DNA of 43,091 nucleotides from Opitutia bacterium (GTDB taxonomy: Bacteria > Verrucomicrobiota > Verrucomicrobiia > Opitutales > JANYDI01). The stretch is taken from the NCBI GenBank assembly GCA_025363695.1, contig JANYDI010000058.1, positions 1-43,091 on the forward strand, given 5' to 3'. Numbering within the stretch: position 1 is the stretch's first letter; each line of letters opens with the position of its first letter. The translations under genes were made by a program, and so were the position numbers. This document shows positions 2,788-43,091 of the stretch, piece after piece. The notes beneath the pieces are model-generated. The model saw only the letters and a program-made list of their open reading frames with translations, did not search any database and had not been told where the DNA came from.

Positions 2788-3858
2788 ATGATCCTAAGAA
2801 GCATTTACGTATTCGCCGCATTTTTCCTGTGTTCTTGCCTCAACGCAACCCATGAAGCTCAGGATGAGCCGTTCCCACTCGAAACGCTCCCCAATGAGGT
2901 CATCGTGATGGTTTATGATTTCCTGAGTCCTCAGGAAACAAGGGCTTTATCCAGCGTGAATAGGCTCCTGCGTTCATTACGGCCCATACGAAAAATAACG
3001 GCAAGACAGATAGGTATACTTAGGTTGATTTTTGAAGATGCGCCGCGTGAGGTGGCGTCGTATCTGAATTTCGATTTGCTTGTTGAGCTGCATGTAAATG
3101 TTCTGACAAGGGAAATATCCAGGAGCTTTAGGGAATCAACACCTAGGGAAGCAAACATAAAAACACTGACAGTATCCTTGTTTTCAATGACAAACGAGGA
3201 CCTGGCAACCCTGGTACCTGGACTCACGCAGTTGCGAAAGCTCGGGTTATCGCGAAACGCAATAAACAATGAAGGCATCGCTCACCTGACCCAACTCACG
3301 CAGTTGCAAAATCTTGATTTATCCTGGACCTACGTAACGGATGCTGGCACCGCTTCCCTAACCCAACTCACGCAGTTGCAGAAACTCAATTTAAGTGGAT
3401 GCACCACGCTGACTGACAGCGGCATTGCTGAATTGGTAAAATTAACTCAATTGCAAAAACTCGGTATGTCCCACACCCGAGTGACCCATGTAGGCATCGC
3501 CCTCCTGGCTGCGTTAACCGCCTTGCAAAAACTCAATCTGTCTTGCACCCAAGTGACCGACGCTGAGATTATTCATCTTGTAAAATTAACTCAATTACAG
3601 AAACTCTACTTATATCACACCCAAGTGAGTGACGAGGGCCTTGCTCAGCTGACTGCGTTATCGGCTTTGCAAAAACTCAATGTGTCCGCCACCCGAGTGA
3701 GCGACGCGGGCCTCGCTCACCTGGCTGAATTAACGGCGTTATGGGAGCTCGATTTGAGTCACACCCCGACAAGCAAAGCCGGCATCGCAGCCCTTCAAGA
3801 ACACCGTCCAGGCCTGAAAATTTTATTGGGAACGCTAGATGCGATGCTCCCTTGGTAA
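2788..3858 (+). CDS. F-box-like / leucine-rich-repeat protein, tandem paralog of 1704-2783
   Basis: Starts 4 nt after the previous stop. The N-terminal ~90 aa are nearly identical to the upstream gene (IYVFAAFFLCSCLNATHEAQDEPFPLETLPNEVIV...). They are followed by ~8 LRRs (LTQLQKLNLSxTxVTDaGiaxL). Confidence 0.8.
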   Translation: MILRSIYVFAAFFLCSCLNATHEAQDEPFPLETLPNEVIVMVYDFLSPQETRALSSVNRLLRSLRPIRKITARQIGILRLIFEDAPREVASYLNFDLLVELHVNVLTREISRSFRESTPREANIKTLTVSLFSMTNEDLATLVPGLTQLRKLGLSRNAINNEGIAHLTQLTQLQNLDLSWTYVTDAGTASLTQLTQLQKLNLSGCTTLTDSGIAELVKLTQLQKLGMSHTRVTHVGIALLAALTALQKLNLSCTQVTDAEIIHLVKLTQLQKLYLYHTQVSDEGLAQLTALSALQKLNVSATRVSDAGLAHLAELTALWELDLSHTPTSKAGIAALQEHRPGLKILLGTLDAMLPW

Positions 3859-3895
3859 AGCTTGCCATAACGCCATCCTTAAAATAGGTTCCACC

Positions 3896-4594
3896 ATGCC
3901 CGAACCCGAAGAAATAAAAACCTTGTTCCAGCGTATTGCCTGGCGTTATGACCGAGCTAACACGGTCCTAAGCCTAGGACTGCACCGTTACTGGCGTTGG
4001 CGAACAGCACGGGTGGTCAAGGCCCTCAAGCCCAAGGTCGTGCTGGATATGGCCACTGGGACGGGTGATTTAGCCTTTGCCCTTGAGCGACAACTCGGGA
4101 AAACCACAAGCATTATGGGTATGGACTTTTGCGAACCCATGTTGGCCTTGGCGCGTAAAAAACAAGGGAATTCCCCTATTCCGTTTACCCTAGGCGATTG
4201 CCTAAATATTCCCCTAGATGACGGCAGTATCGACGTGGTAACTATGGCCTTTGGCTTACGGAATATTCCCCAGCGCAATAAAGCGTTTTTGGAAATCCAC
4301 CGCGTATTACGTCCTGGAGGGTTTTTGGTCCTCCTGGAGTTCAGCCAACCCAGCCGCTGGTTTGCGCCGCTGTATTGGCCGTATTTACACGCTATTTTAC
4401 CCTGGCTCTCAGGCCTCCTTACGGGCCACCAGGAAGCATATCGCTATTTGGGCCGCAGTATTGAGGGCTTTTTAAGCAAAAAAGCCCTCAGTGATGAGCT
4501 GCGTAAGCACGGCTTTGAGCCAGTAAAGGCTGTTGGGCTGTCGGCCTCCGTTGTGGCTATTCATGTAGGAAAGAAAAGGGCCAAGGGGAGCTAG
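3896..4594 (+). CDS. ubiE: Demethylmenaquinone/ubiquinone C-methyltransferase (UbiE/MenG family)
   Basis: ATG at 3896 (MPEPEEIKTLFQRIAWRYDRAN) aligns with UbiE N-termini; the track ORF start at 3839 overlaps the upstream gene. SAM-binding motif VLDMATGTGD is present, and LRPGG and LEFS motifs match the family. The stop codon lies in the loop of a repeat hairpin. Confidence 0.85.
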   Translation: MPEPEEIKTLFQRIAWRYDRANTVLSLGLHRYWRWRTARVVKALKPKVVLDMATGTGDLAFALERQLGKTTSIMGMDFCEPMLALARKKQGNSPIPFTLGDCLNIPLDDGSIDVVTMAFGLRNIPQRNKAFLEIHRVLRPGGFLVLLEFSQPSRWFAPLYWPYLHAILPWLSGLLTGHQEAYRYLGRSIEGFLSKKALSDELRKHGFEPVKAVGLSASVVAIHVGKKRAKGS

Positions 4595-4879
4595 CTCCCC
4601 TTGTATCCCCTATCGGTAGCGATTTATTAAAATGCTAGCGCATTTTAAATAAATCGCTACCGGATGGCGATACAAGGCCCCCCACAGATCGCGAAGCGAT
4701 CCGGGTGTATTTTATGAATTGCTTTGAAAGCTTGGTTTTAACGGAGGCATTTTGACGTTTAGACAAGGAAGGGAAGTGCGTAGCGCACTTTAGGTGCGTG
4801 AGTCACTTCCCTGACGCCGTATAAACTCAAAAGGCCCCGCTAAAACCAAGCTTTAGGGGCGCGAGCGCCCCCTTAGCCC
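4575..4879 (+). repeat. Composite: type-1 half + type-2 hairpin element + inverted terminal H1
   Basis: H1 4582-4603, H2 4612-4665, H3 4687-4701, type-2 hairpin 4727-4854, terminal H1 4855-4873. Same architecture as 33220-33521. Confidence 0.9.
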
Positions 4880-4898
4880 TTCCCTTTCCTCTTTTCGC

Positions 4899-5666
4899 TT
4901 GCAATTTTCAAAAACATGCACATTGTCCTTCCTTATAAAAACCTTCCTTACCCTTACGAAGCATGAGCTTTGGCAACTGATGACCTGGCCTGGGAGCTAT
5001 GCCATGGCTGCTGGATTCCTGGGCTTGATGGGTTTTTTGTTCTTTCTTGTCTTGGAACGATTTCTACATATATCTCAGAATACACCGCTTTTTGAGGGGT
5101 TTTTTGACTTGTTTTGGTTACCGGTTCTTTTTGGAGTCCCCTTGTTGACCTTACGGAGTTTTTCGCAGGAACGGCGTGAGGGGATTTTGGAAAGCGTCTT
5201 GGCAACCGGGGCCTCACTGCAGGCGCTGGTTTGGAGTAAATTTTTAGCCCTGTTTTCCTTTTACTGCCTTCTTTGGCTGCTGTGTCTGAGCTTTCCGCTT
5301 TGGATGCTGGGCGTACTGGGGCAGGCCGCACACAACCACCTCGATGTGGGTATGTTTGTTGGCAGTTACGCGTTTATCGCGCTCAGCGGAGCTTTTTACC
5401 TTTCTGTCGGGATGCTCCTTAGCAGCTTTACCGAAAACGCCACCCTCGCAGGCATGCTTACTTTCTGCGTTTTGTTTATCCTCATTGTAGGCTCGCAACT
5501 CCTTCCCCAGTCGCATCTGCTGCCCGACTGGCTTCAGGCACCTCTGCTGGTCTTGCAAAACCTGCCCCAGCTGGAGGACTTGCGGCATGGGATTTTAGAT
5601 TCCAGACCGGTAGTCTTTTACGGAAGCGGTACACTCTTATGTCTGACCCTCTGCAGGGGGCATTAG
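4899..5666 (+). CDS. ABC-2 type transporter permease (GldF-like)
   Basis: 255-aa polytopic membrane ORF. PLLTLRSFSQERREGILESVLATGAS matches the conserved ABC-2/GldF loop. There is no in-frame ATG upstream of the conserved N-terminal region, so a TTG start at 4899 or 4923 is likely. Start uncertain. Confidence 0.7.
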   Translation: MQFSKTCTLSFLIKTFLTLTKHELWQLMTWPGSYAMAAGFLGLMGFLFFLVLERFLHISQNTPLFEGFFDLFWLPVLFGVPLLTLRSFSQERREGILESVLATGASLQALVWSKFLALFSFYCLLWLLCLSFPLWMLGVLGQAAHNHLDVGMFVGSYAFIALSGAFYLSVGMLLSSFTENATLAGMLTFCVLFILIVGSQLLPQSHLLPDWLQAPLLVLQNLPQLEDLRHGILDSRPVVFYGSGTLLCLTLCRGH

Positions 5667-5670
5667 GTTT

Positions 5671-5942
5671 GCTAAGGGGCGCTTGCGCCCCTTAGGATCC
5701 CCTACAGGTAGCGATTTTGTGAAATACTACGTATTTCAGCAAAATCGCTACCTGGCAGGAAATACTAAGGCCTCCCACGATCCCGAAGGGATCCGGGAGT
5801 ATACCTTAAAATTCGATTCCGAAGGAATCTGTGGGGGGCTTAGTATCTTCTACCAGGTAGCGATTTTATTAAAATGCATCGCATTTTATAAAATCGCTAC
5901 CTGTAGGGGATCCTAAGGGGCACGAGTGCCCCTTAGCCCTTT
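5671..5942. repeat. Type-1 element, head-to-head double (giant imperfect palindrome)
   Basis: H1 5674-5693, H2 5705-5754, H3 5779-5793, H3' 5815-5829, H2' 5854-5903, H1' 5915-5934. Lies between the GldF-like and GldG-like genes. Confidence 0.9.
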
Positions 5943-5963
5943 CGCAACAAACTTTTAAAGTCC

Positions 5964-7370
5964 ATGAACAAACATGATTTCAAATACGTCAACCGGGGAA
6001 ACGCCCTACGCCGTTTTTTGACGTGGGTGCTGAGCTTGCTCTTCTTGGTGGGGCTGCAATACTTGAGCTATCGTTATTTTTGGCGCCACGATATCACGAC
6101 AGCAAAACGCTACGGCCTCAGCGCGCACACGCAGCGTCAGCTAAAACACCTACAAACGCCTACGGAACTTATCCTAGTAATGGATCAAAAAGACCCCAAA
6201 ACGGAGCTCATTAACCATGATATTCATAAGCTCATGAACGAGCTCTGTTTTGCCTCCTACCAGGATGGCGTCCCAAAACTATCGCTGCGTTTTGTAAATC
6301 CTGAACAATCCCTGGAAACACTGGAAGCACGCTGGGGCTCTGGCCTGGAGAACAGCCTCTTGGTTGTGCAGGCTCAGCGCTTTAAAAAACTGCCTTTGTA
6401 TACTTTCTATACGGACAAAGCTGCTGAGCCGACCTTCGGGGCGGAAGCGGCCATCCTATCGGCCTTGCTTGAACTAGAAATGCCGCAGGCCCGTATTGTA
6501 TTCACATCCGGCCATGGAGAAATGGACCCCCAAAGCACAGCAGCGTTGCAGGGTCTTTCCTTGTTTAATCAGGATCTCAAAACGAGTGGCTTTGTTAGTG
6601 AATCTATCGATATACTCAGCAACCCAGAGGCCCTGAGCACGGCCAACTTGGTGATCATCGCTGGCCCCAGGCAAGCCTTTACGCCGGAGGAAGCCCAGGC
6701 GCTGAAGCGTTTTAGCCAAAAAAAAGGGAGCGCTATTTTTGTGTTCTTAGCAGCCTTACGCCCGCATGGTTTAGAAGCGCTTTTTGAGGACTGGGGCCTT
6801 GAAGCTCCGGAGGAACTCATTGAAGAAACACAGGCCCAAAACCAAACCCCTGAAGGCGAACTCCTGCTCCAGGGCTTTGCCCAGCACCCCTTGTGCCAGC
6901 TGATCAAAGACCATAAAATGCCCATCATTACGGGATTAGCTCGCCCCTTATGGATCCAGGAGGAGCAAGAAACCCTACAGGGCCTTGTCTACACCTCCAA
7001 GACAAGCTTTTCACGGCAGGTTTTTCACGAAGGCAAACGCCTTGCCTTTTCACCAGACCCAGCGCATATCGGCCCCTTGTGCGTCGCCGTCTGGGGAAGC
7101 AAGCCCCAAGGCCGGCACTTGTGGGTAGTTGGCAATGCTGATTTCCTGAGTAATCAATACTTCCCCAAGGGCGGGAATGCCCTTTTTGCCCAACAGAGCG
7201 TACGTCATGCCCTTGAAGGGCCGCCGCTAGCAGCGGTTCCGCCAAAAATCCTCAAAGAAAGGCCCCTGCTCCTCACGCAAGCCCAGCTTTTTAAGCTTGC
7301 CCTGGGGCTGTGCGTATTACCCGTTTTACTGCTAGGAGCGGCAGCTGGATGCTACGTTTTGCGCAGATAA
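5964..7370 (+). CDS. GldG-like ABC transporter auxiliary protein (ABC_transp_aux family)
   Basis: 468 aa with N- and C-terminal TM helices around a large soluble domain that carries the FTSGHGE motif typical of GldG-type proteins. It follows the ABC-2 permease gene. Confidence 0.7.
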   Translation: MNKHDFKYVNRGNALRRFLTWVLSLLFLVGLQYLSYRYFWRHDITTAKRYGLSAHTQRQLKHLQTPTELILVMDQKDPKTELINHDIHKLMNELCFASYQDGVPKLSLRFVNPEQSLETLEARWGSGLENSLLVVQAQRFKKLPLYTFYTDKAAEPTFGAEAAILSALLELEMPQARIVFTSGHGEMDPQSTAALQGLSLFNQDLKTSGFVSESIDILSNPEALSTANLVIIAGPRQAFTPEEAQALKRFSQKKGSAIFVFLAALRPHGLEALFEDWGLEAPEELIEETQAQNQTPEGELLLQGFAQHPLCQLIKDHKMPIITGLARPLWIQEEQETLQGLVYTSKTSFSRQVFHEGKRLAFSPDPAHIGPLCVAVWGSKPQGRHLWVVGNADFLSNQYFPKGGNALFAQQSVRHALEGPPLAAVPPKILKERPLLLTQAQLFKLALGLCVLPVLLLGAAAGCYVLRR

Positions 7371-7392
7371 AAACTGCCGCGCAGGTAAAAAA

Positions 7393-7468
7393 TGGTGCCC
7401 CCACTGAGATTCGAACTCAGATTAACGGTTTAGGAAACCGCGGTTCTATCCTATTGAACTATGGGGAC
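7393..7468 (-). tRNA. tRNA-Arg (anticodon CCT), CCA encoded
   Basis: The reverse complement folds by hand into a cloverleaf. Acceptor GTCCCCA/TGGGGGC, D arm GTTC/GAAC, anticodon stem GCGGT/ACCGT with loop TTCCTAA (CCT), T arm CTGAG-TTCGAAT-CTCAG, and 3' ACCA. Confidence 0.9.
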
Positions 7469-7507
7469 TATTTGGTAGCTGAGTGAATAAAATAATTTAA
7501 TCTGTGC

Positions 7508-7535
7508 TTGATTTTACAAAAGACACAGCTACAAT
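7508..7535 (+). promoter_or_regulatory. Putative sigma70-type promoter of the LacI-family gene
   Basis: TTGATT (7508-7513), 16-nt spacer, TACAAT (7530-7535), ~70 nt upstream of the ATG. It is overlapped by the imperfect inverted repeat CTGTGCTT...AAGACACAG. Confidence 0.4.
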
Positions 7536-7607
7536 GAAAAAGAGCGTCTTTGGGTAAAGTCAAGATTAATCCCACTGAGCCTTCGCCGTAGCACGAATAA
7601 AGCTTTT

Positions 7608-8699
7608 ATGAATAAACGCGTCACGATCAAAGACCTGGCCCAGGAAGTTGGATTAAGCCTTGGAGCCGTTTCTCAGGCCCTTAACCCTCGAGAAAGCACC
7701 ATTAAAGTACGCGAAGAAACAATACAGCGTGTCCAAGCTGCCGCCCGGAGAATGGGCTATAGGCCTCACGCAGGGGCTAGCTCGATTCGTTCCAAGCATT
7801 TCCAAAACATTGGGTACTTCATGGCCAGTACAGGCATTCCGGACTATGAACCTGTAGGCTATTCCATAGGACTCCATGATGCTGCGCTGGAACACAATTT
7901 TCGCGTCACCTTGATCCGCTTGCCTTCGGGCAAGTTCAAAAACGCCATCTCGCGCGTCTTCAGAGAAGCCCATCTAGACGCCATGGTCATGGTGAATGCC
8001 TCCATCCTTTTTTCGGAATACAAGGACATTCTCCAAACTTCAGATTTTCCAGTCATTTATTTAAACGATAAACAGGATAATAACTCTGTCTACACCGATG
8101 ATATTTTGGGTGCCAAGCGTGCCACAGAACACTTGATCCAGCGCGGTCATCGCAGTATTTATTTTGTCAAAATCAATAATGCTCCTGTAGTAGACCTACA
8201 TTACAGCATTGCCGATCGCATCCAGGGCTACACAGAAGCCATGCATACCGCAAAGCTCAAACCCGTCATCAAAGCCTACACCTACCCGCAACAAGAAGGC
8301 CCCTTGCTTGATGAGCTTTTTGGTCGCGATAAGCCTGAGGCCATTTTAGCTTATTGCGATGCGGATGCCGCCCAGCTCCTAAAGTTTGCTTATCACCAAG
8401 GCCTTCATGCCCCTGAAGACATCGCCATTATGGGCTATAACGACGATATCTTTTCACGCCACTGCTGGGTCACCCTGTCAACCATGCACATCCCCACCTA
8501 CGATATGGCCCAGGCTGCCTTCCGCATGGTTTTAGCTCAAATTGATGAAAATAGCAACGGCCCTACCGACTCCTGCGTCTTTGTCCCAGAACTCATCGTC
8601 CGCGCTTCTACGGAAAGGGAAAAGGAAACGGAAAAGGAGAAGGAAAGGGCCAAGGGGAGCGAGCTCCCCTTGGATCCCCTACAGGTAGCGATTTTGTGA
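7608..8699 (+). CDS. LacI/GalR family transcriptional regulator
   Basis: N-terminal HTH (VTIKDLAQEVGLSLGAVSQALN) plus a periplasmic-binding-protein-like sugar-binding core. The last ~30 aa (EREKETEKEKERAKGSELPLDPLQVAIL) are translated from a purine-rich tract and a type-1 repeat. Confidence 0.85.
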   Translation: MNKRVTIKDLAQEVGLSLGAVSQALNPRESTIKVREETIQRVQAAARRMGYRPHAGASSIRSKHFQNIGYFMASTGIPDYEPVGYSIGLHDAALEHNFRVTLIRLPSGKFKNAISRVFREAHLDAMVMVNASILFSEYKDILQTSDFPVIYLNDKQDNNSVYTDDILGAKRATEHLIQRGHRSIYFVKINNAPVVDLHYSIADRIQGYTEAMHTAKLKPVIKAYTYPQQEGPLLDELFGRDKPEAILAYCDADAAQLLKFAYHQGLHAPEDIAIMGYNDDIFSRHCWVTLSTMHIPTYDMAQAAFRMVLAQIDENSNGPTDSCVFVPELIVRASTEREKETEKEKERAKGSELPLDPLQVAIL

Positions 8700-8803: not shown

Positions 8804-9019
8804 CACATAAGGAGGCCTGAAGGGCCGGCAGATCGTAGCCCAGGGCGTAAGCCCTGGGTCCGGGATGGAAAATAAACCGGAGCCCTGTAAGGGCGGCACT
8901 AAAAATTTGAATAGGAGTGTCGCCCCTGTAGGGCTCAAAATCTTTTTTTACCGTAAACCCAGGGCTTACGCCCTGGGCTGTCATCTGCCGGCCCTTCAGG
9001 CCTCCTTAAGTGTGGTTTG
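8804..9019. mobile_element. Foldback MITE core, CACATAAGGAGGCC-arm subtype
   Basis: ~58-bp arms (CACATAAGGAGGCCTGAAGGGCCGGCAGAT.GTAGCCCAGGGCGTAAGCCCTGGG and its complement) around an inner hairpin GAGCCCTGTAAGGGCGGCAC...GTGTCGCCCCTGTAGGGCTC. Confidence 0.85.
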
Positions 9020-13264: not shown

Positions 13265-13561
13265 AAACAAAATATGGTTATGTATTTATTCAAACCACAC
13301 ATAAGGAGGCCTGAAGGGCCGGCAGATACGTAGCCCAGGGCGTAAGCCCTGGGTTTATGGGTGAAAAAGATTTTGAGCCCTACAGGGGCGACACTCACAC
13401 TTTCTGAAATTTTCTTGAGTGCCGCCCTTACAGGGCTCTGGTCTATTTTCCATGCCAAACCCAGGGCTTACGCCCTGGGCTACGATCTGCCGGCCCTTCA
13501 GGCCTCCCATAGTGTGATTTGAATGAATGACTTAAGCTTAAACTAAAATGAGGACACGCCC
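13265..13561. mobile_element. Foldback MITE, CACATAAGGAGGCC-arm subtype (left TIR missing)
   Basis: Foldback core 13282-13521. Right linker and TIR ...GAGGACACGCCC end at 13561, followed by TA 13562-13563. Confidence 0.85.
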
Positions 13562-13563
13562 TA

Positions 13564-13767
13564 TTTAATCAAACCACACTTTGCCCCGTGGCCGCCGTAG
13601 CCACTTGGCGAAGGCTGGCTGGGTTTACGGGTAAAAAACAAACCAGAGCCCTACAGGGGCGATTCATTAAAATGTATCAAATTTATCTAGAAATTAAAAA
13701 TATGCCTTATATCAGCTTTAGAGAATCGCCCCTGTAGAGCTCTAGGCTCTGTGAAGGAAAATTTTTG
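13564..13767. mobile_element. Foldback MITE variant: GCCGCCG mini-hairpin module + AT-rich-core inverted repeat; right arm missing
   Basis: Mini-hairpin module ~13578-13612. Core inverted repeat GAGCCCTACAGGGGCGATTC ... GAGAATCGCCCCTGTAGAGCTC at 13646-13742. Confidence 0.75.
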
Positions 13768-13769
13768 TA

Positions 13770-14060
13770 ATGTGAACAATTAAGCTATCCAACAAACCAC
13801 ACATAAGGAGGCCTGAAAGGCCGGCAGATATGTAGCCCAGGGCGTAAGCCCTGGGTCTGTAGGTTAAAAAAGATTTAGAGCCCTACAGGGGCGACACTCA
13901 CACTTTCTGAAATTTTCTTAAGTGCCGCCCTTGCAGGGCTCAGGTTTATTTTCCAACCAAAACCCAGGGCTTACGCCCTGGGCTACATATCTGCCAGCCT
14001 TTCAGGCCTCCTTAAGTGCGTTTTAAATAAATAGTTATATTATTATTTGATCACAGCGCC
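13770..14060. mobile_element. Foldback MITE, CACATAAGGAGGCC-arm subtype, near full length; TA on both flanks
   Basis: TA 13768-13769, partial left TIR ATGTGAACAATTAA, foldback core ~13795-14018, right TIR TTATTTGATCACAGCGCC ending at 14060, TA 14061-14062. Confidence 0.85.
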
Positions 14061-26136: not shown

Positions 26137-26244
26137 GGGGGTAGCGGAGAAATTTTGGGTGCAGGCAAGGCGCTAAGCCCGACGTGTGCTTTTGCACTCG
26201 AGGGCTGCAGCAACGCAGCATCCACCCAAAAGACTCCGCTACCC
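26137..26244 (-). repeat. Type-2 hairpin element, alternative-core variant (CTGCAGCCCTCGAGTGCA core)
   Basis: Its reverse complement aligns along its whole length with 30114-30236. The outer stem is GGGGGTAGCGGAG...CTCCGCTACCC. Confidence 0.8.
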
Positions 26245-28497: not shown

Positions 28498-28768
28498 GGT
28501 TTTAGCGGGCTATTCTGGGTTGATGCTTCGTCATGGAAGTGACTCACGCACCGTAGTGCGCTACGCACTTCCCTTCCTTGCCTGAACCAAGAATAGCCCG
28601 CTAAAACCGGCTCAAAGCACGTCTTCCCAATTTCCCGGATCGCTTCGCGATCTGTGAGGGTCTTAGTATCCACCTACCCCGATAGCGATTTTGCCAAAAT
28701 ACGTAGTATTTTGCAAAATCGCTATCGGAAAGGGGATCCTAAGGGGCGCAAGCGCCCCTTGGCCCTTT
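28498..28768 (-). repeat. Composite: type-2 hairpin element + type-1 half
   Basis: Type-2 28498-28608, H3 28638-28652, H2 28679-28728, H1 28741-28760. Confidence 0.9.
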
Positions 28769-29752: not shown

Positions 29753-30127
29753 ATGACCGTTATGAAAAATCAAAACATTATTATACTGGGAGTGCATCTC
29801 CCCCTTACCGAGGCGATAAAGAACACGGTTCATGAAAAAGTACAGCGTTTATTTCATCATGAAGCCCGTATTCTTAGAATCAGAATCGAGCTGACTAAAG
29901 ATTCCTGCGAAAAACGCGAGGACAATTTCTGCGCCTGTGGTATTATTGAAATCAATGGCCCTAATTTGGTTGTGAAAGAAAAAAGTGGCGACCTTTACAA
30001 GTCCATAGACCGCATGGTGGATAAGCTGGACCGCAAACTCAACCAACGCGCTCGGCTTATCCGCGTGAAACGCCACTACCTACATCCCATAGATTTATCA
30101 TGCTCCCTCCCGAAGGTTGGGGTTTAG
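29753..30127 (+). CDS. hpf: Ribosome hibernation promoting factor / RaiA (short HPF, S30AE family)
   Basis: IIILGVHLPLTEAIKNTVHEKVQRL...DLYKSIDRMVDKLDRKLNQ matches the S30AE fold pattern. ATG at 29753, or alternatively 29762. The stop lies inside a type-2 hairpin element. Confidence 0.85.
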   Translation: MTVMKNQNIIILGVHLPLTEAIKNTVHEKVQRLFHHEARILRIRIELTKDSCEKREDNFCACGIIEINGPNLVVKEKSGDLYKSIDRMVDKLDRKLNQRARLIRVKRHYLHPIDLSCSLPKVGV

Positions 30128-30388
30128 CGGGTTATTTTGGGTTGATGCTGCGTCGCTGCAGCCCTCGAGTGCAGAAGCACACGTCGGGCTTAGCTCCTTG
30201 CCTGAACCCAAAATTCCTCCGCTAAACCCCAACCTTCCAAGGCAATTCAAAAAACATTCGATCGCGATACAATCTGTGGGGTGCCTTGTATACCTACTCC
30301 CGATAGCGATTTATCTAAAATGCGTTAGCATTTTAATAAATCGCTATCGGAAAGGGGATCCAAGGGGAGCAAGCTCCCCTTGGCCCTT
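30114..30388 (-). repeat. Composite: type-2 hairpin element (alternative core) + type-1 half
   Basis: Type-2 variant 30114-30236, degenerate H3 ~30259-30274, H2 30300-30350, H1 30362-30381. Confidence 0.85.
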
Positions 30389-32430: not shown

Positions 32431-33273
32431 ATGGAAAACCCCTACTGGGTGCACCATCTGGATCCTGTCGCTTTGGCTATAGGGTCCACCGGTTTGGCCA
32501 TTCGCTGGTATGGGCTGGCCTATTTTGTAGGCCTACTCAGTGCCGCGGCGCTCCTATCGCTTTACTACAAAAAGCAGCGCTCACCCCTAAATCCTGAACT
32601 TCAGGCGACTTACCTGACCACGGGCTTATTCGGAGTGCTCATCGGCGGACGCCTCGGCAGTGTCCTTTTTTATGGCCTGCCTCCTTTGGAGGCCCTCCAA
32701 ATCTGGAAGCCTGGCATGGCCAGCCATGGCGGTTTTGTGGGTGTCGCTTTGGGAACGCTTTATTTTTGCTGGAAATACAAGCAACCCTTTCTGAGCACGA
32801 GTGACATCATCTGCACACTTCCCAATGTCGGGTTTTTCCTGGGTCGCATCGCAAACTTCATCAACGGAGAACTCTGGGGCAAAGTAACGACGCTACGCTG
32901 GGCCGTGATCTTCCCTCATAGCCCTCTGCCACTTCAGCCCCGGCACCCCTCGCAGCTCTACGAAGCTGCCCTCGAAGGGCTGTTTATGCTCATTTATACC
33001 CAAATACGCTTTTGGCGCAGCAACGTCTGCAACCGCTATCCCGGGCAGCTCTCCGGAGAATTCCTCTGCCTCTATGCCCTCGCACGCATCCTGTGCGACT
33101 GCTTCCGCGAGCCCGACTCCGCAAGCATCCTTCACCTGCCCAGGGGTACCTTTTTGTCGCTTATTTTGCTGGGATTCGGGGTGGGCGTAGTGGTGGTAAG
33201 TAGGGGTAGGGCTAAGTTTAAGGCCAAGGGGCGCTTGCGCCCCTTAGGATCCCCTACGGGTAGCGATTTTTAA
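32431..33273 (+). CDS. lgt: Prolipoprotein diacylglyceryl transferase
   Basis: IRWYGLAYFVG, GGRLG, GMASHGG, GRIANFINGELWG and HPSQLYEA motifs. The last ~26 aa (..SRGRAKFKAKGRLRPLGSPTGSDF) are translated from a purine-rich tract plus a type-1 repeat. Confidence 0.9.
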   Translation: MENPYWVHHLDPVALAIGSTGLAIRWYGLAYFVGLLSAAALLSLYYKKQRSPLNPELQATYLTTGLFGVLIGGRLGSVLFYGLPPLEALQIWKPGMASHGGFVGVALGTLYFCWKYKQPFLSTSDIICTLPNVGFFLGRIANFINGELWGKVTTLRWAVIFPHSPLPLQPRHPSQLYEAALEGLFMLIYTQIRFWRSNVCNRYPGQLSGEFLCLYALARILCDCFREPDSASILHLPRGTFLSLILLGFGVGVVVVSRGRAKFKAKGRLRPLGSPTGSDF

Positions 33274-33521
33274 AAATGCAAAGCATTTTGTAAAAATCGC
33301 TACCCGGTAGCATATACTAAGGCCCCCACAGATCGCGAAGCGATCCGAGTGTATCTTATGAATTGCTTCGAGCCGGTTTTAGGGGAGGCATTGGGGGTTC
33401 AGGCAAGGAAGGGAAGTGCGTAGCGCACTTAAGGTGCGTGAGTCACTTCCATTCCGCAGCATCAACCCCCAATGTGCCCCTAAAACCATCCTAAGGGGAG
33501 CGAGTGCCCCCTTAGCCCTTT
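33220..33521 (+). repeat. Composite: type-1 half + type-2 hairpin element + inverted terminal H1
   Basis: H1 33225-33244, H2 33257-33306, H3 33331-33345, type-2 33375-33487, H1' 33493-33513. Confidence 0.9.
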
Positions 33522-36208: not shown

Positions 36209-36317
36209 GTTTTAGGGGGGCATTGGGGCTTCGGACAAGGAAGTGAAGTGCGTAGCGCACTACGGTGCGTGAGTCACTTCAATGACGCCGTCCCAAACCC
36301 CAATGCCCCCCTAAAAC
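36209..36317 (+). repeat. Type-2 hairpin element (GAAGTGCGTAGCGCAC core)
   Basis: Outer stem AGTTTTAGGGGGGCATTGGGG / CCCCAATGCCCCCCTAAAACT. The core is identical to the copies at 4727, 28498 and 33375. It overlaps the stop of the OppB-like gene. Confidence 0.85.
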
Positions 36318-37470: not shown

Positions 37471-37828
37471 GGGCGTGTGATCAATTAAATTTAAAACCTG
37501 TTTTAATAGATCCATTAGTATTGATAAACGATTATTTAAAAACAAACCACAAAATGAGAGCCCTGTAGGGGCGAATGCTTGTTAGCCCAGGGCTTTAGCC
37601 CTGGGTTTACGGTGAAAAATAAACCAGAGCCCTACAGGGGCGATTCATTAAAATATATCAAAATCTTGTTAAGTATGTTCTGTATATCAGATTATGAGAA
37701 TCGCCCTTACAGGGCTCTAAATCTTTTTTCTATGCCTAACCCAGGGCTAAAGCCCTGGGCTGACAAGCATTCGCCCCTTCAGGGCTCTCATTTTGTGGTT
37801 TTAAGCTTAGTTAATTGATCACACGCCC
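37471..37828. mobile_element. Full-length nested foldback MITE, ACAAAATGAGAGCCC-arm subtype; TA on both flanks
   Basis: TA 37469-37470, TIR GGGCGTGTGATCAATTAA 37471-37488, arms AAACCACAAAATGAGAGCCCTG.AGGGGCGAATGCTTGT.AGCCCAGGGCT..AGCCCTGGG, core inverted repeat 37627-37717, TIR TTAATTGATCACACGCCC 37811-37828, TA 37829-37830. Confidence 0.9.
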
Positions 37829-37830
37829 TA

Positions 37831-38121
37831 AATTGTTTATTCAAAACACACATAAGGAGGCCTGAAAGGCCGGCAGATACGTAGCCCAGGGCGTGAGCCC
37901 TGGGTCCGGGATCAAAAATAAACCAGAGCCCTGTAAGGGCGGCACACAAGAAAATTCCAGAAAATAGGAGTGTCGCCCCTGTAGGGCTCAAAATCTTTTT
38001 TCTACTGGAACCCAGGGCTCACGCCCTGGGCTACGTATCTGCCGGCCCTTCAGGCCTCCTTAAGTGTGTTTTTAATCAACAACTTAGGCACTCTATCAAC
38101 CCCAACCTCTCATTTACGCCC
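37831..38121. mobile_element. Foldback MITE, CACATAAGGAGGCC-arm subtype, abutting the previous MITE
   Basis: Foldback core ~37846-38070. The right end ...CTCTCATTTACGCCC finishes at 38121, followed by TA 38122-38123. The left TIR is absent, and it shares TA 37829-37830 with the neighbouring MITE. Confidence 0.8.
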
Positions 38122-38164
38122 TAAACTTTTTTTGAAAAAAATTTAATTTTTTTTAAAAAACTCC

Positions 38165-38192
38165 TTGACAATCGATATTTTTTTGGTATAAT
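38165..38192 (+). promoter_or_regulatory. Near-consensus extended -10 sigma70 promoter of an orphan transcript
   Basis: TTGACA (38165-38170), 16-nt spacer ending in TGG, TATAAT (38187-38192). An A/T-rich UP-like tract lies upstream (38124-38160). Confidence 0.65.
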
Positions 38193-38198
38193 TATGGG

Positions 38199-38611
38199 GA
38201 CAGGGACAAATCCCAGTTGGCCAGCAACAAAAAAATCATCATGAAAACTCAAAACGACCAAGCTCTTTTACTCGAAATAATGCCCGGATTCTGTACTAGG
38301 GAACTCACGACAACCCTTTCTCGCCGGCTTAAGAAGCGAATCTAGCCCGAGAACTCAGATAGTGAATACGTGTTCTCGGGCGTCCTGACCCCCTATCTTT
38401 ACACAAAGATAGGTTAGCTAAATAAAACCTTAGAGCTCCGTAAGGGCGATTCTCGACTTGATACATAATAAAATTTAATAAATAAATAAAAAAGCCTAAG
38501 CCTACAAGCATAAATCAACAAGAGAATCGCCCTTACACGCTTAAAACTTAAAAAAATCTATTGAGAATACTTCACGCTTAAAGCCCTGGATATCAAAATC
38601 CAGGGCTTTTT
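38199..38611 (+). ncRNA. Candidate orphan structured transcript (~410 nt, class unknown); could alternatively encode a 34-aa peptide (38241-38345)
   Basis: Bounded by the strong promoter and an intrinsic terminator. Hand-folded hairpins at 38203-38214, 38346-38380 and 38393-38412, and a long inverted repeat at 38440-38536. The only ORF on this strand starts at 38241 and has no Shine-Dalgarno sequence. No tmRNA, RNase P, 6S or SRP signature motifs are present. Confidence 0.4.
38580..38611 (+). terminator. Rho-independent terminator
   Basis: AAAGCCCTGGA-tatcaaaa-TCCAGGGCTTTTT: a 9-bp GC-rich stem, an 8-nt loop and a T5 run. Confidence 0.75.
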
Positions 38612-38670
38612 CATGAAAAAACGCTAAAAACCTGAAAAATATATCATAAAACCTTAAAAACATTATAACA

Positions 38671-38922
38671 AGGCGTGCTCCTAATCGATAATATAACTAT
38701 TTATTCAAAACACAAAATGAGAGCCCTGAAGGGGCGAATGCTTGTCAGCCCAGGGCTTTAGCCCTGGGTTTGGCATAGAAAAAAGATTTAGAGCCCTACA
38801 GGGGCGATTCTCACAACTTAATATATAGAATATATTTAACAAGATTTTGGTACACTTTAATGAATCGCCCCTGTAGGGCTCTCATTTTGTGTTTTTAAGT
38901 TTAGTTAATTGTTCACACGCCT
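38671..38922. mobile_element. Foldback MITE, ACAAAATGAGAGCCC-arm subtype with right-arm deletion
   Basis: Degenerate left TIR AGGCGTGCTCCTAATCGATAA, complete left arm, core inverted repeat 38791-38881 joined directly to TCATTTTGTG, right TIR TTAATTGTTCACACGCC. Confidence 0.8.
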
Positions 38923-42454: not shown

Positions 42455-42890
42455 TACGATCATTCTGATGCTATTTTTGTATTTAAAATCACATACATAT
42501 AAGTTGTTTATCAACAACAAAGTACACTTTGATCGCCCTGAAAGGGCGAAGGATGATAGCCCAGGGCGACTCTTGGGTCGCCCTGGGTTTGCTGTGAAAA
42601 AAGACTAGAGCCCTACAGGGGCGATTCTTAAAATGTATTAAATTTATCTTAAAATTAACAAAATATTGCAATAAAATTTAAAATATATGCTCTATATCAA
42701 CTCTATTGAATCGCCCCTGTAGGGCTCTAAATCTCTACCTACCAGAACCCAGGGCGACCCAAGAGTCGCCCTGGGCTATCATCCTTCGCCCCTTCAGGGC
42801 GATCATTTTGTGTTTTGAATCAAAAAGTTAGACTGCCTTCAGCACGATAGACTTAGACGCATGTGATTTTTAAAGACAAAAATAGCATCA
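42455..42890. mobile_element. Third foldback subtype (GATCGCCCTGAAAGGGCG arm) nested inside a larger inverted repeat
   Basis: Outer inverted repeat ATTCTGATGCTATTTTTGTATTTAAAATCACAT (42462-42494) / ATGTGATTTTTAAAGACAAAAATAGCATCAGAAT (42861-42894). Inner foldback ~42515-42815 with core inverted repeat 42608-42727. Confidence 0.75.
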
Positions 42891-42896
42891 GAATTA

Positions 42897-43091
42897 GGGC
42901 GTGTGATCAATTAAGCTATCAACAAAACGCACATAAGGAGGCCTGAAGGGCCGGCATATCGTAGCCCGGGGCGTAAGCCCTGGGTTTACAGGTGAAAATT
43001 TTTTGAGCCCTACAGGGGCGACACTCGTATTCAAATTCTGAGTGCCGCCCTTACAGGGCTCCGGTTTGTTTTTCATATCAAACCCAGGGCT
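42897..43091. mobile_element. Foldback MITE, CACATAAGGAGGCC-arm subtype, truncated by the window end
   Basis: TA 42895-42896, then TIR GGGCGTGTGATCAATTAA, linker, left arm, inner hairpin, and the start of the right arm. Confidence 0.85.

Follow-up and report, generated by a model that had tools for sequence, protein, structure and literature searches.

A mosaic, high-copy hairpin repeat in an Opitutia genome with a strand-asymmetric apical tip that recurs in other bacterial phyla

The window, that is, the whole 43,091-nt stretch of DNA analysed here, is contig C30 of a 1.28-Mb draft genome of an Opitutia bacterium (180 contigs, ~81% complete), and it contains six long hairpin elements of the class termed type-2, all of which are intergenic and have ubiE, ABC-2, recN-like, lgt, SDR, iPGM and permease genes as their neighbours. 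All six elements listed in a first-pass annotation of the sequence were recovered where it had placed them (Table 1). Each element forms one long hairpin, with an RNA fold of -59 to -74 kcal/mol and a z score of about -9 to -10, and the six elements folded as DNA gave z scores of -7 to -10. Core A, GGAAGTGCGTAGCGCAC-loop-GTGCGTGAGTCACTTCC, is present in four copies distributed over the plus and minus strands of the window, and no match to it was obtained in 100 shuffles of the sequence. These are the four copies to which a common core had been ascribed, with the correction that the copy at 28498-28608 is inverted with respect to the other three. The asymmetric internal loop described for this core also exists, but one strand reads CGTAG opposite TGAGT, and the ACTCA originally given is the complement of the latter. 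The copy at 36209-36317 has a U-A basal pair (TGAAGTG...CACTTCA), and the outer stem of the copy at 4727-4854 represents a divergent subfamily (AAAGCTTGGTTTTAACGGAGGCATTTTGACG...). Of the two elements carrying core B, the one at 26137-26244 has its scaffold in the orientation of the plus-strand A copies.

Table 1. Coordinates of the type-2 hairpins of the window and of the modules that flank one of them.
Feature	Position	Strand	Details
Type-2 hairpin, core A	4727..4854	+	core 4772-4810; loop TTTAG
Type-2 hairpin, core A	28498..28608	-	tip 28532-28576; loop TACG (4 nt); copy named in the first-pass annotation
Type-2 hairpin, core A	33375..33487	+	tip 33408-33453; core 33412-33450; loop TTAAG; outer stem GGTTTTAGGGGAGGCATTGGGGGTT / AACCCCCAATGTGCCCCTAAAACC; inner clamp CAGGCAAGGAAG / ATTCCGCAGCATC
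Type-2 hairpin, core A variant	36209..36317	+	tip ~36240-36284; 4-nt loop
Same scaffold, core B	26137..26244	+	core 26172-26211; left CAGGCAAGG, right ACGCAGCATC
Same scaffold, core B	30114..30236	-	core 30155-30194; scaffold in the opposite orientation to that of the plus-strand A copies
Type-1 half	33228..33374	+	upstream of the type-2 copy at 33375..33487; H1 GGGGCGCTTGCGCCCC 33228-33243; H2 AT-rich hairpin 33256-33307, then TATACTAAG; H3 GATCGCGAAGCGATC 33331-33345; linker ...GAATTGCTTCGAGCC 33346-33374
H1' hairpin (ATCCTAAGGGGAGCGAGTGCCCCCTTAGCC)	33488..33517	+	downstream of the type-2 copy at 33375..33487

Three layers can be distinguished in a type-2 element: a copy-specific outermost stem, a conserved asymmetric clamp (CAGGCAAGG... 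/ ...ACGCAGCATC) and an exchangeable apical module. A pattern scan of the draft genome gave 102 matches to core A, with an identical core sequence in 66 and the loop TACG in 83 of them, and a count anchored on the scaffold found core A in 98 elements, core B in 39 and rare covarying cores in five (~140 scaffolds); 21 contig ends fall within an element. The core position can be occupied by A, by B, by a rare covarying tip or, in one copy, by the H1 hairpin, which forms the core of a scaffold on contig C141 (found on both strands, near 52 and 4876). The sequence on C141 is a perfect palindrome, in which two right arms face each other across the H1 hairpin (GGGGCGCAAGCGCCCC) and the usual tip is absent. 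Cores A and B are interchangeable, as had been proposed, but the accompanying view that B is unrelated to A is doubtful, because a copy on contig C68 bridges the two: it carries an A-type tip in a B-type sub-scaffold and shares 29 of 40 positions with B, whereas 300 shuffles reached 28 at most.

The type-2 hairpin is frequently part of a larger composite. The type-1 half, which consists in order of H1 (GGGGnGC..GCnCCCC), the AT-rich H2, TATACTAAG, H3 (GATCGCGAAGCGATC) and the GAAYTGCTTCGAGCC linker, precedes 59 of the 80 type-2 copies that have enough flank to judge, so that linkage to a type-1 half, which the first-pass annotation gave as constant except where a gene end took its place, holds for most but not all of them, and the H1' hairpin closes the composite in 23 of the 80. 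Half elements fused to type-1 also occur, head-to-head doublets lie ~140-210 nt apart, and some type-2 arms are cut by a different MITE (226 copies). As in BIMEs, these are extragenic mosaics in which palindromic units and short motifs are combined in varied order, and the type-2 hairpin is one building block of a REP/BIME/MITE-like repeat system that is palindromic, non-coding, high-copy and mosaic in build.

Two further observations concern the type-1 half. The lgt (PF01790) ORF at 32431-33273 runs into the H2 hairpin and stops inside the repeat, so that both the stop codon and the C-terminal tail of lgt come from the repeat. The H3 hairpin carries GCGAAGC, which is known as a very stable DNA mini-hairpin; its loop is flipped from GAA to TTC in many copies and its stem is changed to GATCCCGAAGGGATC in others, the flanks keeping their orientation, and this variation is a small-scale loop inversion together with covariation inside the type-1 half.

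Covariation within the genome was evaluated for 30 gapless full-length copies chosen for at least 18 of 24 outer pairs. Standard pairs fill 96.8% of the cells, compared with 84.9% in shuffled sets, a percentage that is inflated by the choice of copies; the two-sided changes, which occur in 24 of 42 pairs, are not. The covariation score was 0.313 against 0.092 for shuffled sets, none of 500 shuffles reached it, and slid controls gave at most 0.074. The compensatory variation that had been reported for the outer stem is therefore real in so far as both sides change, but it consists mostly of copy-specific blocks and module swaps, the outermost 8-12 bp being copy-specific yet complementary and the inner stem being shared (GGATAAGTAGGG, GAGAACAAGGAG, GTGGCGACAAGGG, GGCAGGAAGGGG, CTTGCTGCATGGAGG). 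In view of these outermost blocks and of the visible shuffling of modules, nesting of copies into other hairpins, or extension of a palindrome, accounts for the covariation of the outer stem better than stepwise compensatory mutation does, and since copy-specific blocks and swaps need no selection for folding, the covariation argues only weakly for such selection. This serves as a warning for RNA-motif discovery, as a striking outer-stem covariation is here largely the product of mosaic assembly.

The mismatches and the rare cores carry a different signal. On the tip-sense strand, outer-stem mismatches comprise 53 G·T against 13 A·C, the G·T mismatches being common to whole subfamilies and the A·C mismatches mostly singletons. 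In the rare cores the internal loop is kept and both tip helices are altered by true double substitutions, as in TGAAGCG-CGTCG-CGTAC-TACG-GTACG-TGAGC-GCTTCA and TTAAGGG-CGTAG-CGTGC-TGCG-GCACG-TGAGC-CCTTAA, and over the genome the apical stem occurs as CGCAC/GTGCG, CGTAC/GTACG or CGTGC/GCACG and the basal pair as G-C, U-A or A-U. The G·T bias and the double substitutions of the rare cores point to a strand-specific single strand. The initial description of the core as strand-asymmetric and structure-conserving, with covarying stems and not a plain palindrome, is borne out.

With regard to genomic placement, 25 of 73 copies (34%) lie in convergent-gene spacers, which account for 16% of all spacers, and divergent-gene spacers are depleted, as is usual for tolerated selfish repeats. 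The flanking genes are ordinary housekeeping genes. In tandem gene contexts, 15 copies are sense and 25 antisense, which is not significant, and neither is the orientation relative to the GC skew of the contig (52:34, p 0.07-0.16); of the 22 contigs that carry multiple copies, 12 have both orientations. No promoter or terminator of the element's own recurred consistently among the copies. Genes bracketed by type-2 pairs are likewise ordinary, and include an ORF for a XerD-like tyrosine recombinase (305 aa) between two same-orientation copies on contig C49 (~3664-4915), an arrangement that is probably a coincidence given the high density of the repeat.

Homologues of the apical tip were then found in other phyla. 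An exact-pattern scan for GCGTAGCGCAC-N3-6-GTGCGTGAG over genome and metagenome collections gave 18 genome loci and 31 metagenome loci, with ~4 matches expected by chance in the genome collection for a uniform base composition. Matches in GC-rich coding DNA (e.g. L018, L022 and L025) are probably due to chance; the others form the apex of long imperfect hairpins in the seven foreign genomes listed below and on unassigned metagenome contigs. The covariance model R1, which describes the tip with 45 positions and 12 pairs, had its seed drawn from a fixed 20-nt pattern, so that the conservation of the tip is partly by construction. R1 detected 109 copies in the genome of the window, 13 in Cerasicoccus maritimus, nine in a Gordonibacter MAG, 19 in an Atopobiaceae MAG, ten in a Rikenellaceae MAG, two in each of two Campylobacter genomes and 11 in a deltaproteobacterial MAG, and all of the foreign copies that were fetched cap hairpins with 27-72 enclosing pairs. 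Matches were also found in nine of 40 further genomes of the Coriobacteriales, the order of the Atopobiaceae MAG (1-5 copies each), in only two of 41 Campylobacter genomes and, under stricter filters, in none of 200 genomes of the window's own phylum. These searches gave a clean control on the fixed-pattern seed, and they show the distribution of the tip across these samples to be patchy and multi-copy.

Among 43 distinct tips, the consensus reads, in order, basal stem, G-C-[GNA]-G, CGYRC, loop, GYRCG and U-[GA]-G-C. The apical stem is changed from C-G to U-A in 16 sequences and from A-U to G-C in two, five basal pairs are changed on both sides, and the closing G·U is invariant (42 of 42 tips). 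The tip cells are paired in 89.5% of cases compared with 75.9% in shuffled sets, with a covariation score of 0.371 against 0.147, which none of 500 shuffles reached. The internal loops are purine-rich and of the GA type, and the sequence of the apical loop differs between phyla. A second module with counterparts in several lineages is the inner clamp: CAGGCAAGG... / ...ACGCAGCATC is similar to (G)TCAGCGAGG... / ...CCGCAGCGTCGAC, which forms the base of the elements in Coriobacteriales, and to GCAAGGCG / ACGCAGCA in loci L017 and L032. As judged from these sequence comparisons, apical module A is an uncatalogued, patchily distributed, cross-phylum family with a strand-asymmetric structure. Dispersed hairpin repeats are common, but as a rule each is confined to one lineage and linked to a RAYT or an IS; this tip recurs nearly letter for letter in Cerasicoccus, Coriobacteriales, Rikenellaceae, Campylobacter and a deltaproteobacterium (labels as given in the records) on stems that are otherwise unrelated.

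A repeat of this kind could also be read as a duplex-DNA site to which a dimeric regulator, or a protein acting on the nucleoid or on DNA topology, binds, in which case the covariation would reflect matched half-sites. BIMEs bind gyrase and IHF, the placement of the present repeat is extragenic, high-copy and regardless of orientation, and its inverted-repeat arms would suit a dimer. However, the dyad symmetry is broken by GNA opposite GA and by the G opposite T in 42 of 42 tips, G·T is preferred over A·C on one strand, and the same tip recurs in phyla whose regulators would differ, so that recognition as a duplex seems hardly probable at all.

One foreign copy lies within a ribosomal RNA gene. 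The 23S rRNA gene of Campylobacter troglodytis (4807-8000, minus strand; model positions 488-2925, 2340 bits) contains a tip (L026, 6574-6619, minus strand) that reads in the sense direction of the gene and is followed closely by the conserved GGUAGGAGAGCGUUC block, the alignment of which begins at model position ~1232. This is the helix-45 region, a known site of intervening sequences (IVSs) in Campylobacter (PMC2801512), and IVSs of 23S rRNA at helices 25 and 45 have been described in Campylobacter, Salmonella and Coxiella (PMC2801512; PMC4990558). In an uncultured Campylobacter, a sister copy lies between genes, with a dnaX-like gene downstream of it. The likeness to an IVS, an insertion that RNase III removes from the rRNA precursor, resides in the long hairpin at a helix tip, and a position inside a 23S gene is seen for the C. 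troglodytis homologue alone, whereas the window copies are all intergenic and 39 of the 41 sampled Campylobacter genomes are without the tip, from which it follows that classical IVSs are not generally members of the tip family. A search for a gene of the IVS protein family PF05635 found none, and our literature search found no paper linking MITEs and IVSs; through the C. troglodytis copy, a connection of intergenic hairpin repeats with rRNA intervening sequences becomes testable.

The sense copy in an rRNA gene is also among the points in favour of a cellular RNA role, in which the hairpin would serve in cis as a 3'-end or intercistronic module (a stabilizer, an RNase III site or a terminator helper) or would be a small RNA, the tip then being an RNA motif to which a protein binds. 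A UACG loop closed by C-G is the RNA-stabilizing cUNCGg tetraloop, and it is found in 83 of the 102 copies; the invariant closing G·U, the tolerance of G·U far above that of A·C, the purine-rich GA-type internal loops and the position of copies behind genes lean in the same direction. A cellular function of this kind is nevertheless unlikely, considering that sense copies do not predominate in the genome of the window (15 against 25) and orientations are mixed in the other phyla, that no consistent promoter or terminator was found, that the loop sequence is not kept between phyla, that the distribution is patchy, and that the mosaic build and the copy-specific outer stems have the appearance of selfish spread.

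Known families and mobilizing enzymes were searched for. The comparison with Rfam covariance models that the first-pass annotation had proposed was carried out: Rfam 15 gave no match for the elements at the gathering threshold and only generic hairpin matches to miRNA models at E<=10, and no match was obtained for the foreign copies. In an unsystematic comparison, no IS end matching the core was found; the flanks of the type-2 elements contain no consistent direct repeat, and their arms are inverted repeats. Among 72,556 plasmids, 50,697 phages and the IMG/VR viral contigs, none matched the tip, and on the basis of this lack of sequence matches a plasmid or phage vector, or identity with an sso, was rejected. 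A literature search for the tip sequence returned only chance matches to primers. Integron attC sites (R and L boxes) and K-turn geometry did not fit the sequence on inspection, and resemblances to 16S rRNA, SRP RNA, domain V of group II introns and dif are presumably coincidences of short words. Reverse transcriptase is absent from the genome of the window and from five of the seven foreign carriers, and retro-mobility was rejected because most carriers lack this enzyme.

Several known repeat systems resemble the type-2 elements in part. The REP/BIME/REPIN repeats of Enterobacteria and Pseudomonas, which are mobilized by Y1 transposases of the RAYT type, are also extragenic, high-copy imperfect palindromes arranged in mosaics, with some head-to-head doublets and an enrichment behind genes, and core A has GTAG 5' of the apical stem (before CGCAC), as in REPs. 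In contrast, the type-2 unit is ~110 nt in length with three nested layers, and homologous tips read GAAG, GGAG, GTCG, GTGG or GTTG at the position of the REP GT[AG]G head. The genome of the window contains a single Y1 (PF01797) gene (contig C149:1664-2005), which is flanked by inverted copies of the 226-copy Acido-Lenti-1 MITE and not by type-2 elements, and Y1 is missing from six of the seven foreign carriers; a RAYT/REPtron system was rejected on these grounds. Ssn nucleases recognize NTS/SRM repeats as ssDNA (Chenal et al., 2025; PMC11893778), and in these systems, too, oriented hairpin repeats number in the hundreds, are flanked by non-palindromic sequence and occur in several phyla (PMC11893778). 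The NTS, CGTCATTCCCGCGMAVGCGGGAATCYRG, is unlike the tip, and GIY-YIG domains (PF01541) were found only in frames of 493-819 aa, the size of UvrC, in all eight genomes, with no small GIY-YIG gene in the genome of the window or in the seven foreign carriers, and an Ssn/NTS system was rejected accordingly. Bacterial foldback MITEs such as Correia/NEMIS, RPE, Nezha and Chunjie share the non-coding character, the length of ~100-150 nt, the end-to-end fold, the location between or behind genes and the mutual nesting. They differ in that the conserved part is here the tip and the inner clamp and not the termini, that the tip is shared across phyla, and that no parent IS, empty site or target-site duplication was identified, the comparison genomes being no nearer than the same order. 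The usual mobilizing enzymes therefore do not accompany the tip across its carriers.

A partner provided by every host would dispense with such enzymes. In one form of this idea, the tip would be an sso-like signal for single-strand initiation, at which host RNA polymerase or primase would prime the complementary strand on excised or displaced ssDNA, and the universality of the host enzyme would explain the conservation across phyla without a dedicated gene. The hairpins of sso elements, ~160 nt long and orientation-specific, are primed by RNA polymerase (PMC5703833), and the CS-6 motif of ssoA hairpins is TAGCGA/T (PMC10378824), which the TAGCGC/TAGCGT of the tip resembles; the structure is strand-specific, no dedicated enzyme co-occurs, and the neighbouring H3 module carries GCGAAGC. 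The likeness nevertheless amounts to a single 6-mer, which spans the internal loop and the stem as TAGCG[C/T], being partly base-paired, whereas CS-6 of ssoA lies in the terminal loop, alongside an RSB element and in a rolling-circle replicon context. The 6-mer also varies between homologues (GAAGCG, GGAGCG and GTCGCG), the plasmid, phage and viral collections contain no match, and the stems have no visible promoter-like duplex; an sso-like function is very unlikely. More broadly, the tip and the GCAAGG / CGCAGC clamp might together be a universal handle for a host machine conserved in all bacteria, the candidates being an RNA-processing enzyme or, on ssDNA, primase or RNA polymerase. We consider this quite unlikely, but if it were true, gene-less hairpins could multiply and cross phyla without an enzyme encoded by the element, and rRNA IVSs would be one landing outcome of protein-free mobile hairpins.

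The reading that we favour, with a probability of roughly 0.55, is that of a REP/BIME/MITE-like selfish hairpin, the folded, single-stranded tip of which is recognized by a putative trans-acting factor that drives or accompanies its spread. A folded single strand, RNA or ssDNA, bound by a putative protein is the best reading of the tip, and we infer mobility, single-strand recognition and the existence of the partner from the features of the repeat. On this selfish reading, the element would spread through gene spacers, with the tip, folded in a single strand, as the recognition handle for the putative protein, and gene ends and the tips of hairpins would be the landing sites of new copies. 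Landing at tips would nest copies within other hairpins, giving rise to interchangeable cores and copy-specific outer stems, and landing on the tip of an rRNA helix would turn the element into an intervening sequence. R1 provides a searchable motif with which the partner of the tip may be traced.

The MITE flanking the Y1 gene is also present in the window, where Rfam Acido-Lenti-1 (RF01687) gave 14 matches in inverted pairs at 8813-9003, 13307-14009, 37559-38768 and 42534-42984. These matches belong to a MITE-like repeat of ~226 genome copies with CTGCCGGCCCTTCAGGCCTCCTTAAGTG ends and hairpins that contain CCCTGTAGGGC, and this repeat might be the REP-like substrate of the only Y1 (IS200/RAYT-like) gene of the genome.

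Some of the loci found in the tip scan are of interest in themselves. The type-2 elements of loci L012, L023 and L027, on JANXME01 contigs of the MAG 'Actinomycetes bacterium 336R_concoct_83_sub', are identical to those found in the genome of the window; either the organism is the same and the label of the MAG doubtful, or the contigs were mis-binned. The deltaproteobacterial MAG has a tandem pair of tip-family hairpins, ~115 nt apart (L017, 2162-2321), directly 3' of a cluster of three tRNA genes. In the Gordonibacter MAG, one tip hairpin (L010, 3236-3280) lies between a 185-aa frr-like ORF and a 261-aa uppS-like ORF and another (L016, 2385-2429) just after a 542-aa groEL-like ORF, names that we presume by eye from the translated N-termini; both tips are antisense to the upstream gene, and both stand in conserved operon contexts.
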